Below, piece after piece: positions 3,406 to 42,370 of a stretch of DNA of 64,000 nt. The stretch's first letter is position 1. Every line of letters starts with the position of its first letter. The position numbers were made by a program, and so were the translations under genes. The notes beneath the pieces are model-generated. The model saw only the letters and a program-made list of their open reading frames with translations. It had not been told where the DNA came from and made no database searches. The stretch is taken from the sequence record ON286975; one strand, 5' to 3'. The stretch comes from Escherichia phage I29.

Positions 3406-4119
3406 ATGCTGAATACTAAACTGATCGACAACCTGGAAAAACTGTCCCAGCCTGAAAACTACCTTTGGTCTGCCAACTGGGTGGAAAACTGGAACCGTGT
3501 GGCAGCTAAAGTGAAAAAATCATACACACCATTCGAATTACAGCTTAGCTTCATTGAGGAAGAGTTCAATGAGGTTTTGGAAGAGCTGGAGAAAGGTGAT
3601 GGTGGAGATCACCTGCTAAAAGAGGCCTGCGATCTTCACGTTGTCACAAGTTATGCAGCTTATCTTGTTAATGATAACCACGAAAAGTGGTCAAACCTGT
3701 TTGATAATCCGCGAGGTCTTAAGTTCAAGATCGGTGAGTTCTATGATACACTGATCGCTGCGAAAAACACATCCAAGCAAAGAGCGTCAGCTTACCGACT
3801 AGCGGAGTTATCAACAGCTTTGCTGTTCCAGCTTAGCGGGGATGTGTGTGGGATGATGCGGAAGGTTCTAAAATCTAATGACAGTAAGTTTGCACGGATC
3901 AACCATCTACGGCATTCACACGGTGCCAGTGCAGATATGCCTGCTGAACAACTCATCGAGTTGGAGATTAAAGATCTTGAGCGTCGTTTTGGTGGTCGCT
4001 ACGAAGGTTTCGTTGCTAAAGAGGAGTTCTACAACGGCAATAAAGTTATTATATTCCTTGACAGTAAAGGTAAGATTATGAAGCCTTCGAGCTTCAAGGA
4101 TGTAACAGAGTATATTTAA
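3406..4119 (+). CDS. MazG-like nucleotide pyrophosphohydrolase (tentative)
   Basis: Acidic helical EEEFNEVLEELEKGD motif. Confidence 0.35.
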   Translation: MLNTKLIDNLEKLSQPENYLWSANWVENWNRVAAKVKKSYTPFELQLSFIEEEFNEVLEELEKGDGGDHLLKEACDLHVVTSYAAYLVNDNHEKWSNLFDNPRGLKFKIGEFYDTLIAAKNTSKQRASAYRLAELSTALLFQLSGDVCGMMRKVLKSNDSKFARINHLRHSHGASADMPAEQLIELEIKDLERRFGGRYEGFVAKEEFYNGNKVIIFLDSKGKIMKPSSFKDVTEYI

Positions 4120-4125
4120 CAACAT

Positions 4126-4150
4126 AGCCGGGATTACCCGGCTTTACTTA
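4126..4150 (+). terminator. intrinsic terminator-like hairpin
   Basis: agccggg-atta-cccggct stem-loop then T-rich tail. Confidence 0.45.
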
Positions 4151-4181
4151 TTATGGAAAGTATGCAGTGAGGTAGTCAGTT

Positions 4182-4490
4182 ATGTACAAGCATTCCAGAG
4201 ATCTTGAAAAAGATGCTGTGTTTGGCGACCAGATGAAGGAGCTGATCAAACTTATTGGTAGAATGGAAGATAAGTTTGACACTAAAATCTACATCGATAG
4301 CAAGGTCTTCAACCACAAAATATGGACAAATGTGTGTGTTGGGCTACATGGTGATAAAGATATTGTAAATTTGGTTGTAATAAAGTTCATAGTGTGGCAG
4401 AATAGGACTATACGTTATTACGACCCACACTTACTTGTTTATCCTATAAAAGACCTACTACAGAAGGAGGACTGCAATGCCGTTATTTAA
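4182..4490 (+). CDS. hypothetical protein
   Basis: ORF in arm orientation. Confidence 0.4.
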   Translation: MYKHSRDLEKDAVFGDQMKELIKLIGRMEDKFDTKIYIDSKVFNHKIWTNVCVGLHGDKDIVNLVVIKFIVWQNRTIRYYDPHLLVYPIKDLLQKEDCNAVI

Positions 4491-19955: not shown

Positions 19956-20234
19956 ATGAGCTGCGAAAAATCTTTTTTCATCATCATTTACGGTAAGGAT
20001 AACTGCCCACATTGTGTCAGAGCAAAAGAATTTGCAATCAGCAAAGGTCTGCCTTTTGTATATAAGACACTTGGCGAGGGCTACACAAAAGAAGAGCTTA
20101 TTGAGAAGTGTAGTCCAATCGTCCCCCGAACGTTGCCGCAGATCTTCTTAGAAAGCGATCTTGACAGTATCCATATAGGCGGTGCCGACGATTTCATCTC
20201 TTTTGTTAAGAATGGTTTTGGAGAGAAAAAGTGA
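19956..20234 (+). CDS. glutaredoxin/NrdH-like redoxin
   Basis: CPHC active site near N-terminus, 92 aa, between RNR genes. Confidence 0.7.
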   Translation: MSCEKSFFIIIYGKDNCPHCVRAKEFAISKGLPFVYKTLGEGYTKEELIEKCSPIVPRTLPQIFLESDLDSIHIGGADDFISFVKNGFGEKK

Positions 20235-22369
20235 AAGTTGTAAAACGGGACGGTAGAGAAGAGTTCTATAACGGAATTAAGGTGATCAAGGCGGCAGAGT
20301 CCGCCTTACTTGAGTCTGGACATACTGAAGAAGAAGCTTACCGGATCGCTTGTGCGGTTAATGAAGTTGTTGCTAACAATCTGCCAACCGACCAGTGCAC
20401 GATCTCTGTAAAAAATATCCATATCCTTGTTGAAGATGCTCTTATGGATATGGGTTTAAAATGTGCAGCCAGAGAATACATCCAGTATAGACAGACAAGA
20501 GATAATAACAGAGAGGCAGGTGGAAAACTGCTTGCAGATATTAGTGGCTTCTTGGATCGAACTTGTGATGAATTTACAAAAGAAAACGCAAATAAGCCCA
20601 CTAATCATGTACACACTCATCGTGACCTGCTTGCAGGCATCCTTAGCAAACACCTTGCATCAACACAGATCCTGCCAGACCGTGTCTCCGAAGAGCACAA
20701 TAAAGGCTTCATCCATGTGCATGATCTTGACTACTTGATCAGTCCGTTAACAAACTGTTGTTTGGTAAATTATCCAGATATGCTGGAAAACGGATTCAAC
20801 ATTGGTAACGCCCATGTCAGTAAGCCGAAGTCAATAGGGGTTGCAACAACAATCCTTAGCCAAATCTCCAGTGCGGTAGCTAGTGCTCAATATGGTGGTC
20901 AGACTATGAGCCATATTGATCATTATCTGGCACAGTATGCTGAAGCGACCTATGAGAAGAACCTTAAATTTTGCCAGGAACATTGGTTGCCAGATGCTGA
21001 GACCGTTGCAATGCAAATGACAGATAAAGACGTGTTTGACAGCATGCAGACTTTGCTCTATCAAATCAATACGTTAACCTCTGTCAACGGGCAAACTCCA
21101 TTCATCACATTAAGTTTAGGACTGGATACCTCGGTCTTTGGTAGAATGATTACCAAAAATTACTTGAAAGTCCACAAAATGGGTCTTGGTGAAGAACGGA
21201 TCACACCTGTGTTCCCTAAAGTGCTGTTCTTCCTAGAAGAGGGTGTCAACATGAGCCCTAGAGATCCTAACTATGATTTGAAACGATTAGCTCTGGAATG
21301 CTGTGCAGAACGTATCTATCCTGACTTCGTATCTGTACCACTAAATAGAAAAGTGACAGGCTCGACAGATGGCAAAGTAACGAGCATGGGTTGCCGGAGT
21401 TTTCTTAGCAAATACAATGACTTGGAAACAGGCGAGGAGAAATACCTTGGCAGATTTAACTTAGGCGTTGTTAGCCTTAACCTGCCAATGATTGCGGCAA
21501 AAGCTAAGACGGAAGGTGTTGATTTCTTTGCAGTTCTTGACGAATACTTAGATCTTGCATACGAGGCTCACCTTGTAAGGGTTAACCGTCTAAAAGGAAC
21601 AAAGGCAGGGCAGAACCCCATCATGTGGTGTGAAGGCGCTCTTGCTCGCCTGGATCCTGAAGAAAGTATTGATAAACTCTTCTATGACGGGTACGCTTCC
21701 ATCAGCATTGGGTACATTGGTGTGTATGAAACCTGTCAGATTTTGGGCAGAGAAGGTGACAAGGCTTTAGCTCTTGGAATCCTTCAGCACATGAGAGATG
21801 CTTGTGAGCGATACAAGAAGGAAAGTAGACTAGCATTTAGCTTGTACGGCACTCCTTCTGAGAGTCTATGCTATAAAGCTGCAACCTGTCTGGATCGTGA
21901 ATATCCAGAAGTGTTAAAGCACGAGCATGAATATCTCACCAACAGTTTCCATCAGCCAGTATGGATCAATAGCTCTCCTTTTGATAAGTGGGAGTATGAG
22001 GAAGGTTTTGCTATGATCTCCTCCGGTGGCAACATCGGATACGTAGAGACACCTAACCTGAAAAACAACCTTGATGCTTTAGAGGCTCTTGTTGACTTCG
22101 GGTATAAACACATTATGTATTTTGGTATTAACCAACCTGTGGATAAATGTCTCAAGTGTGGTTTCTCTGGTGAGTTCAGTGCAACAGCTAAAGGGTTCTG
22201 CTGCCCTGCGTGCGGATGCCACGATGAACAATATATCTCAGTGATCCGAAGAGTGTCTGGCTATCTCTCCAGCCCGAACAGTAGGCCGTATAACACAGGT
22301 AAACAAGCAGAGGTTATCGAACGTGTTAAACATGTTGGGAATGTAGACTGTTGTCCGTTGAGTAAATAA
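20231..22369 (+). CDS. nrdD: anaerobic ribonucleotide reductase (class III)
   Basis: 712 aa; C-terminal CLKCG...CPACG zinc ribbon and glycyl-radical RRVSGYLSS. Confidence 0.9.
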   Translation: MKVVKRDGREEFYNGIKVIKAAESALLESGHTEEEAYRIACAVNEVVANNLPTDQCTISVKNIHILVEDALMDMGLKCAAREYIQYRQTRDNNREAGGKLLADISGFLDRTCDEFTKENANKPTNHVHTHRDLLAGILSKHLASTQILPDRVSEEHNKGFIHVHDLDYLISPLTNCCLVNYPDMLENGFNIGNAHVSKPKSIGVATTILSQISSAVASAQYGGQTMSHIDHYLAQYAEATYEKNLKFCQEHWLPDAETVAMQMTDKDVFDSMQTLLYQINTLTSVNGQTPFITLSLGLDTSVFGRMITKNYLKVHKMGLGEERITPVFPKVLFFLEEGVNMSPRDPNYDLKRLALECCAERIYPDFVSVPLNRKVTGSTDGKVTSMGCRSFLSKYNDLETGEEKYLGRFNLGVVSLNLPMIAAKAKTEGVDFFAVLDEYLDLAYEAHLVRVNRLKGTKAGQNPIMWCEGALARLDPEESIDKLFYDGYASISIGYIGVYETCQILGREGDKALALGILQHMRDACERYKKESRLAFSLYGTPSESLCYKAATCLDREYPEVLKHEHEYLTNSFHQPVWINSSPFDKWEYEEGFAMISSGGNIGYVETPNLKNNLDALEALVDFGYKHIMYFGINQPVDKCLKCGFSGEFSATAKGFCCPACGCHDEQYISVIRRVSGYLSSPNSRPYNTGKQAEVIERVKHVGNVDCCPLSK

Positions 22370-22487: not shown

Positions 22488-23420
22488 ATGAGAAGACTAA
22501 CAACCGAAGAGTTTATAGAAAAAGCTCAGACTATACATGGTGACAAATATGATTACTTCAAAGTGGAGTATAAAAACAACAAGACACCTGTGTGTATAAT
22601 TTGTCCTGAGCACGGTGAGTTCTGGCAAACCCCTGTGGCACATGCTTTCAAGAATCATGGTTGTCCAAGGTGTGGTGGGTCAGCGAAAAAGAACACTGAA
22701 GAGTTCATAAAAGAGGCTATGGCTGTTCATGGGGACAAGTACGATTACTCATTAGTCAAATATGCGAACATGAGAACGCCTGTAAAAATTGTTTGCCCTG
22801 AACACGGTGTGTTTGAACAATACCCTGAAAACCACTTATACCAAAGAAACGGCTGCCCAGAGTGCTATGACTTAAGACGTGGGCAAAGTCAAGCGTTAAC
22901 CCATAAGGAGCATGCTGCAATTATCCACAAAGCCAACCCAGACATAGAAATATTAGAGAAAATTGCCAATGATAACACAAAAGTGCAATGTAGGTGCAAA
23001 ATTTGTGGGTATAAGTGGTCTGCTAAACCTAATAACCTAAAAAGTGGTCGTGGCTGCTGTAAATGCGCACAAAATGGATTCTTATCTCATGAGTACGGTA
23101 AACTCTACATTATGGTTGATGACTTAGAAGTGCCAACACTTATGAAAATCGGTGTATGCGTTAAAATGCACAGGAGGAAAAATGAGGTGCTTAACAGTGC
23201 TCGTAAATCTGGCGCAGGTGTCCACACTCTTCACGTAGTAAAAACATGGAGCGGATCAACTCAAAACATGGTAGATTTAGAAAAATCTGTGCATAAGGCC
23301 TTGAGCAAGTATAAAATAAACTTTCCTGTAAAATTTGACGGTAGCACTGAGTTTTTCTACTACAGGCCTGAAGTGTTTGACACGGTAGAAGAGGTATACA
23401 AGAAGATTTGTGGTAAATGA
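22488..23420 (+). CDS. zinc-ribbon repeat protein with T5orf172/GIY-YIG-like C-terminal domain (homing endonuclease-like, tentative)
   Basis: Tandem CPEHG...NHGCPxC modules; sits between nrdD and nrdG. Confidence 0.35.
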   Translation: MRRLTTEEFIEKAQTIHGDKYDYFKVEYKNNKTPVCIICPEHGEFWQTPVAHAFKNHGCPRCGGSAKKNTEEFIKEAMAVHGDKYDYSLVKYANMRTPVKIVCPEHGVFEQYPENHLYQRNGCPECYDLRRGQSQALTHKEHAAIIHKANPDIEILEKIANDNTKVQCRCKICGYKWSAKPNNLKSGRGCCKCAQNGFLSHEYGKLYIMVDDLEVPTLMKIGVCVKMHRRKNEVLNSARKSGAGVHTLHVVKTWSGSTQNMVDLEKSVHKALSKYKINFPVKFDGSTEFFYYRPEVFDTVEEVYKKICGK

Positions 23421-23472: not shown

Positions 23473-23589
23473 ATGTCATCAGGTATTTATAAAATTTGCA
23501 AGTGCGGCTGTAGTTGCAATCTTCGTTGGTGCAAGGCACTAGACGATTTTATTTGGCATTGCCCTAAATGTGATGCGGAGTATCTATGA
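23473..23589 (+). CDS. small Cys-rich zinc-ribbon protein (38 aa)
   Basis: AAGGAGG RBS; CKCGCSCN...CPKCD; not in ORF track (below length cut-off). Confidence 0.4.
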   Translation: MSSGIYKICKCGCSCNLRWCKALDDFIWHCPKCDAEYL

Positions 23590-24059
23590 ACATTGTCGGA
23601 TACACAGAAATATCTTACACCGAAGGGCCAGGTATTAGAACTGCCTTGTGGGTATCTGGGTGCCCACACGCTTGCCCTGGTTGCTTTAATCAGGCATTTT
23701 GGTCAAAAGATAAGGGGAGGGAGTTCACTGAAGAAGACTTGCAAAAAATCTTGTCAGATTTAGATAACCCGTCTGTGTGCGGTATCTCTCTGCTGGGTGG
23801 AGAACCCTTAGCATACTATAATGAGCCAGATATTATTAGCCTGATGGAGAAAATTAAGGAAAAATTTGGTGACAAGAAAACTATTCTTGTATATACTGGG
23901 TTCACATTTGACCATATCTCTAGTGATGTTCTTAAACTGGCTGATATCATCATTGACGGTAAGTATGTAAAAGATTTACCAACCAAGAAACCGTTCCGAG
24001 GCAGTGATAACCAAAGAATGTTTAAAAAAGTATCAGGCGGTTGGGTTCAGGTAGACTAG
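23586..24059 (+). CDS. nrdG: anaerobic ribonucleotide reductase activating protein
   Basis: CPHACPGC radical-SAM-type cysteine cluster. Confidence 0.8.
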   Translation: MNIVGYTEISYTEGPGIRTALWVSGCPHACPGCFNQAFWSKDKGREFTEEDLQKILSDLDNPSVCGISLLGGEPLAYYNEPDIISLMEKIKEKFGDKKTILVYTGFTFDHISSDVLKLADIIIDGKYVKDLPTKKPFRGSDNQRMFKKVSGGWVQVD

Positions 24060-24622: not shown

Positions 24623-25411
24623 ATGGGTCGAGCTAAAGAAACAAAACGCATGCGTGATGAAGCTAGAGAGGCTCGCAAATCTGATCGCTTGCGTAAGGCT
24701 GCTGAGAAATTTGCTGACGAAAGAGAGCACACCGCTCCAGCTCTCCGACCAATGAATAAGAAGCAGCAAAAGTATCTTGATTATCTAGGGTCACGTAAGA
24801 TTATTATTGTAAACGGTGTGTTTGGATCCGGTAAGACATTTATGGCATCTGCATATGCAGGTGATCTTCTGCGTAAGAACGAGATTGATAAGATCATTGT
24901 TGCACGTCCTTACGTCCAGACAGGAAAGACTTCAGGATTTAAACCCGGAAATGCAATTCAGAAACTGTGGCCCTATCTTCGAAGCATGATGGACACGATT
25001 TGTCGTCGTGTTGGCAAAGGTGCTTTTGCCGCAATGCTGGGAGACGGTCAGAACAGTCGTATCGAGATTTGTGAGGTTGAAAGCATTCGTGGTCGTAGTT
25101 TCGATGAGCGATGCTTTGTCCTGATTGACGAGGCACAGCAAACTAACCCTGAAGAAATGTTGTCAATTATCACAAGGATCTCTGATCAAGCCACCCTTGT
25201 AATTATGGGTGATAATAGCCAACGTGACATCCCTGGTAAATCTGGCCTTGCGTGGGTGACGGATTTCTTTACTCGTCATCCAGATCCTGAGGTTGGAATG
25301 ATCAGCTTTGATAGTCCAGACGATGTCGTTCGTTCCGGGTTGGGCCGTCAGATCGCACTCAATCTTATTGAGGATCGTGCAAATCATATTTGGACCCCTG
25401 TTTCCGAGTAA
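24623..25411 (+). CDS. phoH: PhoH-like ATPase
   Basis: Walker A GVFGSGKTF, Walker B VLIDEAQ. Confidence 0.85.
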   Translation: MGRAKETKRMRDEAREARKSDRLRKAAEKFADEREHTAPALRPMNKKQQKYLDYLGSRKIIIVNGVFGSGKTFMASAYAGDLLRKNEIDKIIVARPYVQTGKTSGFKPGNAIQKLWPYLRSMMDTICRRVGKGAFAAMLGDGQNSRIEICEVESIRGRSFDERCFVLIDEAQQTNPEEMLSIITRISDQATLVIMGDNSQRDIPGKSGLAWVTDFFTRHPDPEVGMISFDSPDDVVRSGLGRQIALNLIEDRANHIWTPVSE

Positions 25412-25455
25412 TACAGAAGGGTGGTTATTCCACCCTTAAATATCTAAAACAGTTG

Positions 25456-25484
25456 TTGACAAATAGGTAAGCTTTAGATATTAT
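25456..25484 (+). promoter_or_regulatory. sigma70-like promoter
   Basis: TTGACA-17-TATTAT. Confidence 0.55.
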
Positions 25485-25512
25485 TATCGGACAAAACAGA
25501 GAGAAGGACAGT

Positions 25513-25824
25513 ATGGCTACAATACAAGAGAAACTGAATAAAATATACTGCCTGTTTGTCTATAACGGCGAGACAATTTTGGCAAATAAAGGATCCAAGA
25601 ATGTGTGGACCAAGGACAGCGGTGGTAATATAATTAACTTAGCGTTGCTACGTGAGCGCCGACACAGATTCTTTATCGAGTCTCGAATTATTGAAAGCAG
25701 CACTTGCTACAGAACAGGCGATAAAGTAATTGTTGACAATGATACGTGGTATGTGGTAGATTGGCAATCATTGAGTTGTGATGCTTCTGACAATCGTAAG
25801 TACTCCATAGTGATTGCTAAATAA
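25513..25824 (+). CDS. hypothetical protein
   Basis: ORF downstream of promoter. Confidence 0.4.
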   Translation: MATIQEKLNKIYCLFVYNGETILANKGSKNVWTKDSGGNIINLALLRERRHRFFIESRIIESSTCYRTGDKVIVDNDTWYVVDWQSLSCDASDNRKYSIVIAK

Positions 25825-25884
25825 AGGTAAATGTGAATCAGGTTTAAATAAATAGCTTTCAACTTCCAATATTAAGGATTTCTC

Positions 25885-26934
25885 ATGAATTTAACACCTC
25901 GCAGCACCATGGTACACGGCATGAAAGAAAAACAGAACGGTTTCGAACCTATGAGTAATAAAATGTTTGGTATGCCGGGCGGTATCATGGAAACATACAG
26001 CTACCCAACACCTGTTGTTGACCACGTTCTTTATATCGACGATTTGGAGGACCTGCAGGATCATATGTCTCGTCTGCAGACGATCCGTATGGCTCAGCCG
26101 GAAGAAAGCATTCGTGTGATCATCAATAGCCCTGGTGGTTGCGTGCACATTGCAATGGCTTATCTGCAGGCATTCCGCGAGTCTCAGGCAAGCGTTGTTG
26201 CACATGCTGAAGGGATGTGCTGCTCTGCTGGAACAATCTTATGGCTTGGTTGCAAAGAACGTACTGTGGCTCCGGACACAGAATTTATGTTCCACTACTA
26301 TCAAGGTGGCACTTATGGTAACGGTGTTAACATGAATACTCAGGTCAGCTACTGGAAAAAACGTTTTGAACACCTGATCGAAAAATACTACGGTGGGGTG
26401 CTGACAGAAGATGAGATCGCATCCATCACAGCTGGTGGCGAAGTGTGGTTGGACGGAGAAGAGTTGGCAGCACGCACTGGAGCTATTATTCTGGATGAAG
26501 GCAACATACAACGCATCCAGAACGGACAAAAACCGAAAAAGCTTCTGGCAAAAGGTGATGAAGAAGGCGTGTTAGGTGAAGCAGGTCTTCCGGAGATTCA
26601 TCAGTGCACATCTTTAGATGAGTTAGTTCATGCTGTTGAATCTGCAAAAGCGGGTGGTTCGAAAGGTGATGTTCACACTGTGTTCCTGAATCTGCAGATG
26701 GAAAGTGGCGAGACCGTCCGAATTGCCCTGGGTGAGATTACTTCAGAAGATCTGCAGAGATTCTCTGTCGTTGAACTTCAGGATATTCTGTCTCAATTGA
26801 AGACTACTCTGAACGGCGGTGAAGAGGTTAAGGTGAAAGATAAGACTCGCAAGCGTCTTGTGGACAATATTATTAAAACAGCAAAAGAGCTCAATGAAAA
26901 AATCCTGGGTGCAGGAATTGTCGAAGAAGCTTAA
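25885..26934 (+). CDS. ClpP/S14-family serine peptidase-like protein with acidic C-terminal extension
   Basis: INSPGG, GMCCSAGT (Ser), FMFHYYQGG (His) in ClpP-like order. Confidence 0.6.
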   Translation: MNLTPRSTMVHGMKEKQNGFEPMSNKMFGMPGGIMETYSYPTPVVDHVLYIDDLEDLQDHMSRLQTIRMAQPEESIRVIINSPGGCVHIAMAYLQAFRESQASVVAHAEGMCCSAGTILWLGCKERTVAPDTEFMFHYYQGGTYGNGVNMNTQVSYWKKRFEHLIEKYYGGVLTEDEIASITAGGEVWLDGEELAARTGAIILDEGNIQRIQNGQKPKKLLAKGDEEGVLGEAGLPEIHQCTSLDELVHAVESAKAGGSKGDVHTVFLNLQMESGETVRIALGEITSEDLQRFSVVELQDILSQLKTTLNGGEEVKVKDKTRKRLVDNIIKTAKELNEKILGAGIVEEA

Positions 26935-26946
26935 ACATTAATTCTA

Positions 26947-26970
26947 AAGCCCTCTTCGGAGGGCTTTTAT
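26947..26970 (+). terminator. intrinsic terminator-like hairpin
   Basis: aagccctc-ttcg-gagggctt then ttat. Confidence 0.5.
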
Positions 26971-26985
26971 GATCTGGAGATTTGC

Positions 26986-27519
26986 ATGACTTGTGCTAGA
27001 AAACCTGATGAACAACGTAACGCCTACGATGAGTATGTGACACCGGAGTGGTGTGCAGAAGGGCTGTATGACCTTATTCCGTTCCCAGAAGACTGGACCT
27101 ACTTAGAGCCTTGCAGGAATAGTGCCTCAGGTGTGTTCTACTCCCGTATGCCGTTAGGATCTGCATGGGGAGAAATCCAAGAAGGTGTTGACTATCTGAA
27201 TACAGAATACAACCATGTTGACTGTATTATCACCAACCCGCCGTACAGCCTGGCTCGTGAGTTTGTGGACAAGGCGTTGAAAGATGCCGACGTAGTTATT
27301 ATGCTTTTGCGTCTTAATTTTCTGGAAAGCAAGGCCAGATTTGAATGGTGGCTTGATAATGCACCTACCACTGTGATCACAATATCTAAGCGTCCGTCAT
27401 TCCAATCTAATGGTAGAACGGATGGGCAGGCATATGCATATTTTGTGTGGGATAAGAAAAACCGTTTAGACTTGCCGCCATTTATGTGGTTGGCACCCCC
27501 AGAGGTAGACCTGAAATGA
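26986..27519 (+). CDS. small phage-type DNA N6-adenine methyltransferase
   Basis: DCIITNPPYS motif IV. Confidence 0.6.
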   Translation: MTCARKPDEQRNAYDEYVTPEWCAEGLYDLIPFPEDWTYLEPCRNSASGVFYSRMPLGSAWGEIQEGVDYLNTEYNHVDCIITNPPYSLAREFVDKALKDADVVIMLLRLNFLESKARFEWWLDNAPTTVITISKRPSFQSNGRTDGQAYAYFVWDKKNRLDLPPFMWLAPPEVDLK

Positions 27520-27800
27520 AAATGAGTGCTAAGGACAAATTACACCAGTTAGCGCTAAAACGTCCTGTAACGCTCCCTGACGAGCTTAACTCCATTTATG
27601 ATGCGATTGTAGGGGAGATACAAAATAAAGCGTTAGCAGGCTTTCTGGGATGCGGATTTTCGATAAATCTACCGTCGCATCTCTCAGATTACTTCCCGCA
27701 CATTGTTGGAGATTTAAGGGCAGGAGGTTTGCAGGTAGATGTTGTCGGCATCTCTCCAGAGAAAAATAACACGGTTGCCTACTTGACAGTAACCTGGTAG
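27486..27800 (+). CDS. hypothetical protein
   Basis: ORF in arm orientation. Confidence 0.35.
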   Translation: MVGTPRGRPEMKMSAKDKLHQLALKRPVTLPDELNSIYDAIVGEIQNKALAGFLGCGFSINLPSHLSDYFPHIVGDLRAGGLQVDVVGISPEKNNTVAYLTVTW

Positions 27801-27834
27801 TTGTGTATTGTTGTTCTCAACAAGGGGGTCATTT

Positions 27835-28074
27835 ATGTACAAGTCATTCTCAATTTACTCAAGACAGGCGAAACACTACACAGAGATCCTGATTACTCAG
27901 AAAAAATCTGTAGAAGGTGAGTGGGAATATCACCATAAAATGTTGCGTCCAGATTGGGTTTTTGATAGACTTATTGCCATGATCCCTCTTGGGGAAGTAT
28001 ACCCTCTGACAGCCCATCGCGATGCTTGGGATTTAATTGATTACATAGATTCATTTAAGGAGCCTAGATTATGA
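27835..28074 (+). CDS. hypothetical protein
   Basis: Start at MYKSF after AAGGGGG RBS. Confidence 0.35.
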   Translation: MYKSFSIYSRQAKHYTEILITQKKSVEGEWEYHHKMLRPDWVFDRLIAMIPLGEVYPLTAHRDAWDLIDYIDSFKEPRL

Positions 28075-29743: not shown

Positions 29744-29947
29744 TTGAAAAAGGAGACAGTAATGGCAAAAAATAAATCTTTAGAGCAGGCTGAAAACCTT
29801 CTCCACGAGCTGGTAAAGGAGTGGAAAGTCGAATACTCAGATTTTAATGCACGAGAGGGTGAAGATTATTGGCCTACGGAGCGCTCCGAGGGTGAATGGT
29901 ATCAAGATTTTATAGAGTGGTTATATCAGACGTGCGATGAGGGGTGA
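29744..29947 (+). CDS. hypothetical protein
   Basis: ORF in arm orientation. Confidence 0.4.
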   Translation: MKKETVMAKNKSLEQAENLLHELVKEWKVEYSDFNAREGEDYWPTERSEGEWYQDFIEWLYQTCDEG

Positions 29948-30414
29948 CGATGTTTGTTAAATATGTAAAAACGTGCCTCAACAGCCTTGGCAGAGAGCAT
30001 TGGTACACCTTGCTTGAAAAAGGAGAAATTTTAACAAAATCTGGAAAGATAACTTTGATACCTCTTGATAGTAAAGGTAAAGACCCGTCACGACTTGTTA
30101 TAGATGATTACGTTACAGGTGTGACGTTCGAGGTCTCTGTGGAGAGGTTAATACGCAGAGCTGGCGGCCCTTATGACCGAAGAGAGTATGTTTTCGATTC
30201 CGTTACAGAGATGGGGGAGCATCCGTCTTTAATGTTCAGGATGGTAATCAGAGATATGAGGTCATCTATAGATAGGATCGTAAAGGACATTAAGGAACCT
30301 TTTAGAGTAAAAGTTAAGAAGTTTTTCGATTCTAAGATTAACATACTCGCCGTTGCACTAGGTGTAGTTCAACTTCTGTTAATTTTGCACTATTTTGAAC
30401 TGTTGTTTAAGTAG
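29944..30414 (+). CDS. hypothetical protein with C-terminal hydrophobic segment
   Basis: ORF in arm orientation. Confidence 0.4.
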   Translation: MTMFVKYVKTCLNSLGREHWYTLLEKGEILTKSGKITLIPLDSKGKDPSRLVIDDYVTGVTFEVSVERLIRRAGGPYDRREYVFDSVTEMGEHPSLMFRMVIRDMRSSIDRIVKDIKEPFRVKVKKFFDSKINILAVALGVVQLLLILHYFELLFK

Positions 30415-39045: not shown

Positions 39046-39261
39046 ATGAAGATAGAAATATTTGGTGGAGCTGACAACACTCGTGGCCTGATTTACCTGG
39101 AATTCGATGAATCATACCTGCCAGAGGTGTTAAATATAGACTCTGTTGCTGAGGCTTTGGGAGTAAACCCTAAAGAACTCCACTCTTGTGCTGAGATCGA
39201 TGGTTGGGAAGAGACCATGAACATTGATTTCAGTGAAGTAGAGGATGAACCGCTGGACTGA
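39046..39261 (+). CDS. small acidic protein, last gene of the rightward arm
   Basis: MKIEIFGG start, GGAG RBS. Confidence 0.45.
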   Translation: MKIEIFGGADNTRGLIYLEFDESYLPEVLNIDSVAEALGVNPKELHSCAEIDGWEETMNIDFSEVEDEPLD

Positions 39262-39388
39262 CACACAATTAGCTGCCCGACTAAAGGGCTGGAAGCACCT
39301 ATAACACATCTTTCAACTAAATTTCCTACCACCACAATCACTTACCTCCCACACATGACTGTTTGCTTGTTTAGTGAGCAGTCATGCC

Positions 39389-39416
39389 TTGACATTCTTG
39401 CCTATCCTGATAAAAT
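39389..39416 (+). promoter_or_regulatory. sigma70-like promoter facing a non-coding region
   Basis: TTGACA-16-TAAAAT just after an 8-bp-stem hairpin (catgactg...cagtcatg); no convincing ORF downstream. Confidence 0.45.
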
Positions 39417-39894
39417 TAAGTTCTTCTCTTTTCTTTTACCGAGTAATTCGGGTTTTCTGTTCTCTTCGGTTTGAAGGGGTATGGAGATACACCTGAGTGA
39501 ACAGGGTGAACAACCGAACATTTGGCTATGGCATTAGCATGGCGAAGCGGACGGGTGACGAAAGAGGGGCCGGAGGACACCAGTCACTGCCATATGATAT
39601 ATGGGTGATAACCTGAAGAGTCTGAATAAGTGTTTAAGTACCAGTCAGAGGAAAAGGTGAATGGTAGCCGAAGGGGGAGGGGGGTTTCTTGTATCTTTAA
39701 TTTGTATATTATGTATACACTCGTAAACCAATCTCATCTGAATCTGTTTACCACACAAAGTAGATAGGGACAAATATCACCTATTAAACTTGAATTATTT
39801 ATAGAAAATACCACAACACCACTTAAGTCTTTGATTTTACACACAAATTCTACAGATATTCAACCTCCATATTTAACATACTTGTAACATATTC

Positions 39895-40440
39895 CATACT
39901 CTACCTGTCTGATCAATTTCCCCAACCACATCCTCCATATTTTCCCTGTCTGTACTACCCCTGCCCCGCCGTGAGTCCCGTCATATCTGGCTTTCCAGCA
40001 AATATCACACCCACAAATATCATTGCCTGAAGAGGGTTTCATCTCATAATATATGCCTTACCTGAAGAGCGCTTCATACACCACGTAATTTTTTTTTTAA
40101 TTGACCCCCTCCCCGCCGCTGGAGAGGTTGGCTTTTCCCACACAGACCTGAAGAGTCAGCCAGAAATATCTGAACAGGCCCAATTCTACCACGATTTTGA
40201 CCTGACCTACAGGAGTGCTGCCAGGCGGACGAAATGGGAATCATTCTCATTCTTATAACAATTCTCAAATATCGAGGCAGTGAGGCAAATTAATAGGTGA
40301 GGCCGTTCACACAATGGCACAACATTTGCAACCTATCTTGTGGGAGTGAATGAGAATACCTATCATTGTGAGAATAGTTATCATTACGGGCAATTTAACA
40401 TAATACCCATTATGCGCACCGCTGGTGATACATACAGGGA
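39895..40440. repeat. direct repeat copy 1 (546 bp)
   Basis: Identical to 40489-41034 as far as compared; track ORFs inside the two copies translate identically. Confidence 0.85.
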
Positions 40441-40543
40441 AAATATGGAGGATGTGGTTGGGGAAATTGATCAGACAGGTAGAGTATGCATACTCTACCT
40501 GTCTGATCAATTTCCCCAACCACATCCTCCATATTTTCCCTGT
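40434..40543. repeat. 110-bp perfect palindrome at the junction of the two repeat copies
   Basis: 40441-40488 is the exact reverse complement of 40489-40536, and the match extends 7 bp further on each side; centre gtatg|catac. Confidence 0.85.
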
Positions 40544-41034
40544 CTGTACTACCCCTGCCCCGCCGTGAGTCCCGTCATATCTGGCTTTCCAGCAAATATC
40601 ACACCCACAAATATCATTGCCTGAAGAGGGTTTCATCTCATAATATATGCCTTACCTGAAGAGCGCTTCATACACCACGTAATTTTTTTTTTAATTGACC
40701 CCCTCCCCGCCGCTGGAGAGGTTGGCTTTTCCCACACAGACCTGAAGAGTCAGCCAGAAATATCTGAACAGGCCCAATTCTACCACGATTTTGACCTGAC
40801 CTACAGGAGTGCTGCCAGGCGGACGAAATGGGAATCATTCTCATTCTTATAACAATTCTCAAATATCGAGGCAGTGAGGCAAATTAATAGGTGAGGCCGT
40901 TCACACAATGGCACAACATTTGCAACCTATCTTGTGGGAGTGAATGAGAATACCTATCATTGTGAGAATAGTTATCATTACGGGCAATTTAACATAATAC
41001 CCATTATGCGCACCGCTGGTGATACATACAGGGA
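40489..41034. repeat. direct repeat copy 2 (546 bp)
   Basis: Period 594 bp relative to copy 1. Confidence 0.85.
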
Positions 41035-41325
41035 TTGATAACATGAGTTACAGTTTACACACATAACAATTATATTTCTTACTATTTGTGTGGGATATAG
41101 TTAGCAACCAATAGATTAGATATTGACCTGTAGACTTCCAACCGTCTAGACGTCTAAACGCCCACACAACAAGGCTTATACATACACAACTGAATGTAAA
41201 CAGGGCCGCAAAAATGCTACCATACCAGATTGTAAATTTTCATGCAGCACTTGACAAAGAGGAGAAAAACTTGTCTGACATAATGGTGACACTGAACATA
41301 ATTGACATGCCTGACTGTTTACGCT

Positions 41326-41420
41326 ATCACTATTCACTCCCTTTACTGTTTACATTCTCAATAGTTTACATGTCTAATAGTTTACATAGCTAACTGTTCA
41401 CGCATAGATTGTTTACTCAA
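41326..41420. repeat. iteron-like array of GTTTACA motifs at ~17-bp spacing
   Basis: ctgtttacat, aatagtttacatg, aatagtttacata, actgttcacg, gattgtttactc; further copies in both orientations across 41050-41930. Confidence 0.6.
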
Positions 41421-41491
41421 AAATGATAAGCCATGCCATTCGTTTGCATGATAAAGATTAGCAAGTTAATAATCTTTCGCTGGCTATGCCA

Positions 41492-41709
41492 GGTGACTAG
41501 GTCACCCCTTCGGGCGTTCCTATGACATAATATAAAAGCAGGGCAACTATTAGCAGATCTATAGTTGCCTTGCTTGTTATGTCATGATTAACTAAATACA
41601 AGGCAACTATGATCTGATTAATAGATTGCAGACAAACTATCACGGGGGTGATGGTTACTGCTTTTATATTATGTCGCGACTCCGTCGCGCCATGCCATTC
41701 GTTTGCATA
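41492..41709. repeat. nested inverted and direct repeats
   Basis: 18-bp inverted arms gacataatataaaagcag / ctgcttttatattatgtc; palindromes ggtgactaggtcacc, ggcaactat...atagttgcc, cgcgactccgtcgcg; flanked by direct repeats of ccatgccattcgtttgcat at 41431 and 41691. Confidence 0.7.
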
Positions 41710-42320
41710 GTTGCCTTATTGTTACAGATAAAATAATTGTATTGTTAATTATTTCTTATCTTTCTCTTAGTCATCTAATGATTCCAGTCAGTATAGTAAT
41801 GTACAGTAAACATTAGACGACTAAAGATTTCTCTGTTTATGATAACTCACCGTGATAATTTCAGACTGTTTACGAAAAATGTTGACACCTAAGCTGATTT
41901 ATGCTATGCAGTTTACACGAATAATTATTTTATGCAGGTATTGACTATTCCGTTATTCTATGGTTGGAATAAATACTTAGTAGGCTATAGAATGGCGAGC
42001 GTACGTAAATTCTGAGATCTGGCGGCTATAGTTATACTCGATTTTTCACGTAGAACACGCTTTTGTGGTTATGTAAGTGTATGACTTATAAAGATTTTTA
42101 GTTGTTGACAAGATACTGAAGATGTGCATCAGGTTAAATTTTATGCAATAGCTGCATTACGTGCAATTTTGGAAGGAAAAACGTGTAAAAATGGCCCTGC
42201 TACCACACAATGAAAGATTATGCAATAGCTATTTTACATGTATATTTGTACAGTGTGTGGGATTGATGGCTAGTCAATTATTCCACTTGCCAGGTAGGGC
42301 CGTTTATGGTAGGAGAAGAG

Positions 42321-42352
42321 CAGACAAAAAGAAAGGGGCCTTTAAGCCCCTT
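42321..42352 (-). terminator. intrinsic terminator ending the leftward arm
   Basis: aaggggc-ctttaa-gcccctt hairpin with a U-tract on the minus strand. Confidence 0.6.
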
Positions 42353-42370
42353 GATAATTCAGTTAAGAAA

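Follow-up and report, generated by a model that had tools for sequence, protein, structure and literature searches.

What does a ClpP-like serine peptidase do among the nucleotide-metabolism genes of a large coliphage? The question is raised by a 64,000-nucleotide stretch of the genome of Escherichia phage I29 (sequence record ON286975), hereafter the window, in which a gene on the + strand (25885..26934) starts with ATG, encodes 349 amino acids (aa) plus a stop, and is preceded, 6 nt before its ATG, by the ribosome-binding site AAGGA (25874..25878, +). An earlier reading, made from the sequence alone, had described its product as a ClpP-like peptidase with a long acidic C-terminal extension, and had proposed that it degrades host proteins or defence factors rather than acting as a prohead protease. 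Our analysis points, with a probability of roughly 0.5, to a non-structural ClpP-fold serine peptidase that works without a Clp ATPase partner and is made mid-infection, together with nucleotide-metabolism and replication genes.

The match of the protein to ClpP is far beyond chance. The Pfam model CLP_protease covers residues 59-168 (E 3.5e-12; 47 bits against a gathering score of 20.2), and ClpP chains in the PDB are matched by sequence at E ~1e-7, in alignments where the INSPGG, Ser, and His motifs coincide. The open reading frame (ORF) and the triad motifs named in the sequence-only reading were recovered as described: INSPGG at residue 80, GMCCSAG at residue 110 (containing Ser114), and MFH at residue 135 (containing His137). 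In an AlphaFold monomer model built from 21 family members (mean predicted local distance difference test score, pLDDT, 75.7), the ClpP-fold peptidase core spans residues 45-215 (26017..26529, +) with pLDDT mostly 80-92, and the same region is matched by Foldseek, Pfam, NCBIfam, and PHROG. Compared with solved ClpPs by Foldseek, the core gives E ~4e-8, TM values of 0.63-0.74 relative to ClpP, and ~20% identity. The catalytic nucleophile, Ser114 (codon 26224..26226, +), aligns with Ser97 of E. coli ClpP, for which we used a reference sequence identical to PDB entry 3mt6; His137 (26293..26295, +) aligns with ClpP His122, and both residues are invariant in the family. Glu186 (26440..26442, +) is placed at the position of ClpP Asp171 by alignment only. 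Two further Pfam families, NfeD1b_N and SDH_protease, matched the protein weakly and below threshold, and no match to Peptidase_S49, the family expected of an SppA or lambda gpC-type enzyme, was found in Pfam at E <= 1.

The core is flanked by segments that ClpP lacks. The N-terminal leader, residues 1-42 (25885..26010, +), is predicted to be disordered (pLDDT <50) and carries a conserved F28-G29-x-P-G motif. Following the core are a linker, residues ~216-243 (26530..26613, +), which is the least conserved segment and is predicted to be disordered at residues 223-235 (pLDDT <50), and a C-terminal domain, residues ~244-343 (26614..26913, +), predicted to consist of a helix, a beta-hairpin and two long helices. 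The protein exceeds E. coli ClpP (207 aa) by 142 aa (about 150 aa in the earlier reading); relative to ClpP, ~135-145 aa of added sequence lie at the C-terminus (residues ~206-349), in addition to the ~40-aa leader. The description of this extension as acidic fits poorly, as its net charge is -5 over 144 aa (isoelectric point, pI, 5.3), whereas that of the protease core is -9.

The gene itself is already known, annotated, and catalogued, and is not a discovery. More than 100 genomes of Vequintavirus (rV5-like phages) match a 3-kb query (window positions 25000-28000) at 98-99% identity, and the window itself is that of a Vequintavirus, an rV5-type coliphage. The gene corresponds to gp122 of phage rV5, a protein of 349 aa, 38.5 kDa and pI 5.0 (rV5 genome paper). 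The rV5 gene has equal length, the same neighbours, and the same predicted promoter (P121) and terminator (t122), and nothing structural separates the two. In rV5-like genomes, GenBank calls it “ClpP-like protease” or “ATP-dependent protease subunit”, among comparable names; an identical 349-aa protein is listed in NCBI as “ClpP-like protease [Escherichia phage JohannBauhin]”, and the BASEL phage representative is bas49_0178. In PHROG, the protein belongs to family 5410, “ATP-dependent protease”, which it matches at 2e-154 over residues 24-345, C-terminal domain included. As a separate observation, 19 GenBank records named “Campylobacter phage” also match the 3-kb query; two of them, C12 and C14 (host given as C. 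jejuni or Campylobacter), are 98% identical. Host mis-assignment or contamination is the likely explanation, and the locus otherwise matches E. coli Vequintavirus genomes.

Is the protein, then, a ClpP in the usual sense? Most GenBank annotations, which read “ATP-dependent Clp protease proteolytic subunit”, imply as much. As a genuine ClpP subunit, the protein would take the place of host ClpP or form mixed complexes with it, and would redirect the host's ATP-dependent proteolysis by drawing on host ClpX or ClpA. The likeness to the canonical enzyme comprises the fold, INSPGG, the catalytic Ser and His, the Gly-rich segment after His137 and the long helix next to it (the “handle” region); moreover, the closest solved structures are all ClpPs, and CLP_protease is matched above its gathering threshold. 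However, this broad Pfam model is the only ClpP family model whose cut-off is passed. The curated ClpP models (TIGR00493 and the PRK models) score 21-39 bits against cut-offs of 228-361, and TIGR00493, the model for canonical ClpP (MEROPS S14), gives 33.2 bits against 308.6. The phage protein is ~20% identical to canonical ClpP, replaces Asp171 by Glu186 (Gln in relatives), adds the ~40-aa leader and a ~140-aa linker and C-terminal domain, and has no partner ATPase gene linked to it. Indeed, no Clp ATPase is annotated in a related complete genome, that of Escherichia phage EmilHeitz.

The surface that would receive such an ATPase differs as well. In E. coli ClpP, the pocket for the IGF/IGL loop is lined by Y60, Y62, F82, I90, M92, F112, and L114, as seen in cryo-electron microscopy of ClpAP (bioRxiv 10.1101/820209). 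These residues align, respectively, to R77, I79, E99, H107, E109, T127, and A129 of the phage protein. All seven of these alignable positions differ, and five of the replacements (R77, E99, H107, E109, and T127) are polar or charged and invariant in the family. Helix B, which carries L48 and F49 in ClpP, is 5 residues shorter in the phage protein, and the axial-loop sequence of ClpP is not conserved in the N-terminal 42 residues when these are aligned to E. coli ClpP; the FG-x-PG motif is found in this predictedly disordered region instead. The C-terminal strand of ClpP (L189, R192) also contributes to the apical pocket (bioRxiv 10.1101/820209), and in a ring of the phage protein seven bulky C-terminal domains would emerge at the face where the ATPase docks. 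Docking of host ClpX or ClpA is predicted to be absent, because the hydrophobic IGF/IGL pocket is replaced by invariant polar or charged residues. The protein is ClpP by its fold and by its broad Pfam domain, yet it lacks the defining features of the canonical enzyme. The databases' “ATP-dependent” label is therefore without support from the sequence, the name “ATP-dependent Clp protease subunit” is probably wrong, and we consider a genuine, host-powered ClpP subunit improbable.

If the peptidase is not a partner of the Clp ATPases, does it mature the capsid? A capsid role could take the form of an auxiliary protease acting in trans, encoded away from the head module, whose tethered C-terminal domain enters the procapsid in the manner of the C-terminal targeting segments of prohead proteases and protease-scaffold fusions, with capsid or scaffold proteins as substrates. 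The closest curated families are indeed ClpP-related head-maturation proteases (NF045542 and NF045540; PHROGs 1684, 94, and 133), which share a ClpP-like core with Ser and His and often bear C-terminal extensions or fusions. The best curated matches of the window protein are NF045542 (1.8e-16), the prohead protease/capsid fusion model NF045540 (4.5e-14), and PHROGs 1684, 94, 2976, and 133. In addition, distant relatives recovered by tblastn include capsid maturation proteases of Gordonia, Arthrobacter, and Bacteroides phages, and the C-terminal domain, itself flexibly tethered, terminates in a helix-loop-helix. However, every head-maturation family scores below its curated cut-off, NF045542 reaching 60.6 bits where 120 are needed for membership.

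Unlike the head-maturation proteases, the window gene lies outside the head module, under a predicted early-type promoter of its own, and the head module has a protease of a different type. In EmilHeitz, which is 98.7% identical to the window across the 3-kb query, the head genes run terminase, portal, a 139-aa “prohead protease”, scaffold, decoration, major capsid; a second protease flanked by head genes, which the sequence-only reading had suggested looking for, is therefore present. For this 139-aa protein, Pfam gives Peptidase_S78_2 (XkdF; 8.7e-18) and PHROG gives family 3017, which is a head-maturation family. The EmilHeitz head module is on the strand opposite to the ClpP-like gene, ~33 kb away across the record ends and ~105 kb away within the record. 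Co-transcription with head genes, named in the sequence-only reading as part of what would refute it, was not found: the gene is on a different strand and in a different unit (rV5 units 82-163 versus 27-81). The C-terminal domain was also considered as a scaffold-like or capsid-targeting segment, and this was rejected, as neither the scaffold nor the XkdF protease of EmilHeitz resembles it. A separate observation concerns the annotation of the EmilHeitz XkdF-type protease itself (bas49_0005, 3957-4376 of that record): its best PHROG match is to positions 244-373 of PHROG 1530 (1.7e-51), which is labelled “DNA methyltransferase” and may contain fusion proteins or be mislabelled.

Evidence from the virion bears on the same question. 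None of five tryptic gp122 peptides is present in the rV5 virion mass spectrometry (MS) table, which lists 19 proteins. As for the claim that the gene lies far from any structural gene of the window, tblastn with the EmilHeitz terminase, portal, XkdF protease, scaffold, decoration, capsid, sheath, and tube proteins gave no match in the window, which bears it out for these components; gp133, encoded in the same arm, is nevertheless found in rV5 virions. Three small proteins encoded in this arm a few kb downstream, gp133, gp137, and gp152, have virion MS evidence (rV5 genome paper), so that the arm with the replication and nucleotide genes cannot be regarded as wholly non-structural. In the window, rV5 gp133 corresponds by coordinate offset to a 156-aa ORF with a C-terminal hydrophobic segment (29944-30414, +); it is a predominant virion protein by MS in rV5.

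A further indication comes from the transcription unit in which the peptidase gene is found. A sigma70-type promoter-like site, TTGACA-17-TATTAT, is predicted at 25456..25484 (+) with an 11/12 match to consensus, and is the counterpart of rV5 P121. It precedes a 103-aa ORF (25513..25824, +; rV5 gp121, PHROG 5456), the first of two genes, and the second, the peptidase gene, is followed 15 nt after its stop codon by a predicted intrinsic terminator, GCCCTC-TTCG-GAGGGC-TTTTAT (GCCCTCTTCGGAGGGCTTTTAT; 26949..26970, +), the counterpart of rV5 t122. The free energy (dG) of this terminator is -14.7 kcal/mol (z -4.35), and 0 of 200 shuffled sequences fold as well. The authors of the rV5 genome paper independently predicted the same promoter (P121) and terminator (t122; their Table S4). 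Together, these predicted elements would make the peptidase gene and the 103-aa ORF a two-gene unit that runs from its own promoter to its own terminator. For the structural genes of rV5, a different, T4-late-like motif, TGGTAAAATA, was reported (rV5 genome paper), and the sigma70-type site upstream of the peptidase unit is not of that kind. We also searched for a late promoter upstream of the peptidase gene, and found this uninformative: the window holds 14 one-mismatch matches to TGGTAAAATA, where ~7 are expected by chance.

The gene neighbourhood of relatives is consistent with a place among non-structural genes. The order ribonucleotide reductase (RNR), glutaredoxin, (lysozyme), PhoH, small ORFs, ClpP-like gene is kept in phage 4MG, Erwinia phage Hena1, a metagenomic contig, and ICP1; identity to the window peptidase is 45% in 4MG and 35%, within the core, in ICP1. 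In Pectobacterium phage phiTE, the small ORFs ahead of the ClpP-like gene are separated from PhoH by anaerobic RNR genes. Three phages of other lineages, namely a Pakpunavirus, the Demerecviridae phage Sugarland, and a 253-kb Vibrio phage, carry shorter ClpP-like genes, which are likewise placed amid genes for nucleotide metabolism and replication. The lysis genes of Sugarland (holin and endolysin) are annotated as T5-similar, and the 253-kb Vibrio phage has annotations of T4-type replication and late transcription. T5-like and T4-like phages carry prohead proteases of their own. In none of the relatives examined (4MG, Hena1, the metagenomic contig, phiTE, ICP1, HJ01, Sugarland, and D490) is the ClpP-like gene beside head genes.

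Several of these homologs resemble the window protein in core and gene context. The gp211 protein of ICP1 has a homologous core (35% identity by tblastn; hhalign E 5e-24) and keeps the linkage to PhoH seen in the window. The short “ATP-dependent proteases” of PHROG 1827 (Sugarland gp045, Pakpunavirus HJ01 gp044, and Vibrio phage D490 gp0041) match the core at 3e-40; with 182-245 aa, they lack the C-terminal domain of the window protein. In ICP1 gp211 and the short forms alike, most of the pocket positions are occupied by non-hydrophobic residues, an acidic residue stands at the third triad position, and the genes are sited among nucleotide and replication genes. According to RNA sequencing of ICP1 (PMC7567579), gp211 is expressed as “Middle-late” with PhoH (gp208) and the nucleotide-metabolism block, whereas the ICP1 capsid operon, gp122-126, is late and has a predicted protease of its own, gp125. 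Overall, the separate XkdF protease, the predicted promoter and terminator, the synteny, the ICP1 expression data, and the virion MS uphold the part of the sequence-only reading that denied a prohead role. The gp122-type protease is probably not the capsid-maturing protease, and an auxiliary capsid or scaffold protease is unlikely.

What, then, does the C-terminal domain do? The sequence-only reading had called for a structure prediction, which yielded a folded domain of ~80-100 aa with no match to a known fold. In the AlphaFold model, a helix (244-257) is followed by a compact domain at ~265-343, comprising a beta-hairpin (267-271, 277-281) and helices 295-309 and 322-342, with pLDDT 80-90; a separate model of residues 236-349 reproduces the same secondary structure. 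A profile search of PDB sequences with the domain gave nothing below E 0.7, and Pfam scans of each family member's C-terminal domain gave nothing consistent. A Foldseek search of BFVD returned a single significant match (E 1.9e-4); this viral protein has no name and, judging by its length of 303 aa, probably belongs to the family. Searched against 1.84 billion representative proteins, a hidden Markov model of the domain gave 6 matches, namely family members or their fragments and one spurious leucine-rich-repeat protein. The domain thus occurs only in the gp122 family and is an orphan fold. We also considered a SAP/HeH/Rho-N helix-extension-helix, and rejected it because the resemblance is sub-threshold and the acidic charge of the domain does not fit the basic surface, binding DNA or RNA, that such domains should have.

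The domain evolves in a manner different from the core. Across the family alignment (21 members) there are ~65 invariant positions, nearly all in the core and including Ser114 and His137, and the only invariant residues of the C-terminal domain are F293, E297, and R322. Among relatives that share 40-49% identity overall, the value falls from 57-63% in the core to 17-32% in the C-terminal domain and 4-19% in the linker (here residues 216-264). The phiTE homolog retains a recognisable C-terminal domain; ICP1 gp211 has a 140-aa C-terminal extension with no detectable similarity to that of the gp122 family. Faster evolution of the domain than of the core is what would be expected of a partner-specific interaction module. 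A protein-binding module specific to a partner is the function that would best fit three observations: the flexible tether, a fold that is conserved while its sequence changes fast, and the likely apical position of the domain. The domain might in principle also be made separately, as in lambda C/Nu3. Two in-frame GTG codons lie inside the gene on the + strand, at residues 229 (26569-26571) and 266 (26680-26682), each preceded by AAAGGTGAT (Shine-Dalgarno-like, AGGTGA). Both copies arise from Lys-Gly-Asp codons, and the surrounding linker is poorly conserved.

These observations can be assembled into a mechanism for a non-structural ClpP-fold peptidase that needs no Clp ATPase. The gene, encoding a peptidase with a Ser/His(/Glu) active site, would be transcribed by host RNA polymerase in the middle (delayed-early) phase together with the gene for the 103-aa protein. 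The core would assemble into ClpP-like rings, and the linkers and C-terminal domains would emerge on the apical face, where the ATPase normally sits; this placement is suggested by homology, because the C-terminus of ClpP lies at the apical pocket. So tethered, the C-terminal domains could provide the enzyme with recruitment or gating of its own for specific partners or substrates, and the substrates would be host or phage non-structural proteins and not capsid proteins.

A peptidase without an unfoldase could also be less specific. ClpP deprived of its unfoldase degrades only peptides and unfolded chains, and the gene is consistently found among nucleotide-metabolism genes in several phage lineages. 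It could therefore encode a general recycler of peptides or proteins without a specific target, its scavenging akin to that of the adjoining nucleotide-salvage genes, or a largely dispensable or degenerate enzyme; the limits of ClpP without an unfoldase would suit such a role. The third triad residue varies as well (E, Q or D): in a global alignment of E. coli ClpP with the phage homologs, from which this position was assigned, 4MG and Hena1 carry Gln there, and an acidic residue (Asp or Glu) is found in ICP1, phiTE, HJ01, Sugarland, and D490. However, a folded C-terminal domain with invariant F293, E297, and R322 is maintained in the 21 aligned members, down to ~40% identity, and is still recognisable in phiTE, and its retention therefore favours a specific interaction over bulk recycling. 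Similarly, Ser114, His137, and ~60 other core positions are invariant, and the enzyme is therefore not degenerate. We regard a non-specific or dispensable enzyme as having little chance of being correct.

Several points weigh against a non-structural, mid-infection peptidase. Profile scores rank ClpP-related head-maturation proteases (NF045542, 60.6 bits; PHROG 1684, 79 bits) above cellular ClpP as matches to the core. The ICP1 homolog is classed as “Middle-late” and not early, which would also suit a capsid role, as would the presence in virions of gp133, gp137, and gp152, whose genes share this arm. That gp122 peptides are missing from virions is weak evidence, as a prohead protease usually exits the capsid, and location alone is also weak, given those three virion proteins. 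The promoter and terminator are predictions from consensus matches, and a one-mismatch copy of the proposed late motif TGGTAAAATA lies at 25623-25632. Many relatives carry Gln at the third triad position. The structural models are of the monomer, and the triad geometry and the placement of the C-terminal domain rest on alignment and homology. Finally, we found no functional study of the rV5 or ICP1 ClpP-like proteins in the open-access literature, and no Vequintavirus transcriptome.

A broader picture can be sketched more tentatively. Large lytic phages (Vequintavirinae, Seunavirus-like phages, and ICP1, with the short form in Pakpunavirus, T5-like phages, and T4-like vibriophages) may share ClpP-fold proteases that have lost their ATPase docking site, and the rV5 and ICP1 lineages may have gained a tethered C-terminal recruitment domain. 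Such enzymes would be ATP-independent and would act mid-infection against specific host or defence proteins, with the fast-evolving domain setting the specificity; we consider this wider scenario possible but doubtful. The other part of the sequence-only reading, degradation of host proteins or defence factors, drew no support from searches with PADLOC, in which neither the peptidase nor the 103-aa ORF matched a defence or anti-defence signature.

The gene is kept at the same position in more than 100 sequenced rV5-like phage records that match the locus, including therapy candidates and the BASEL collection, and ICP1, which has been studied more than any other Vibrio cholerae phage, carries a homolog in a syntenic position. 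If the gene does encode a mid-infection protease with its own targeting domain, it would offer a tractable case of phage-directed proteolysis of host or defence proteins, and a natural example of the ClpP fold working without an unfoldase; were it instead a second capsid protease, it would be routine. A conserved protease in well-used model phages holds little to surprise the specialist. What is added here is that the “ATP-dependent” annotation is probably wrong, that the protein is probably not the capsid protease, and that its tail domain is an orphan.

The immediate surroundings of the gene differ slightly from the earlier description, in which it was placed between PhoH and a methyltransferase. 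On the upstream side, the 103-aa ORF separates it from PhoH, and on the downstream side a methyltransferase-like gene is indeed next, beyond the terminator. Just after the PhoH stop, a hairpin, AAGGGTGG-TTATT-CCACCCTT (25417..25437, +; dG -13.7 kcal/mol, z -3.7), may be a weak terminator or a boundary, and is not followed by a U-tract. The 103-aa ORF has no Pfam match; in 4MG, Hena1, and phiTE a homolog precedes the ClpP-like gene by one or two genes, and the product of the ORF could be a partner, regulator, or substrate of the peptidase. Both this ORF and the methyltransferase-like gene, which encodes an NPPY motif, are conserved neighbours in the Vequintavirinae-like group. The NPPY “methyltransferase” (26986-27519, +; 177 aa) matches only the C-terminal half of PHROG 799 (positions 199-381 of 458). 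In every Vequintavirinae-like relative examined it immediately follows the ClpP-like gene, and its start abuts or overlaps the peptidase stop in 4MG, Hena1, and phiTE, whereas in the window the terminator intervenes.

Other parts of the window yielded minor observations. No tRNA genes were found anywhere in it. An ORF-poor stretch of ~3 kb at ~39260-42370, where the gene arms of the + and - strands converge, contains only short overlapping ORFs and corresponds to the “non-coding” box of the rV5 map. Between the anaerobic RNR genes nrdD (20231-22369) and nrdG (23586-24059) lies a 310-aa ORF (22488-23420, +) with DUF723, CapR-homology, treble-clef zinc-finger, and T5orf172 domains, which looks like a free-standing gene of the homing-endonuclease type. 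EmilHeitz lacks a counterpart of it here, and has a homing endonuclease carried in an intron that interrupts nrdD.

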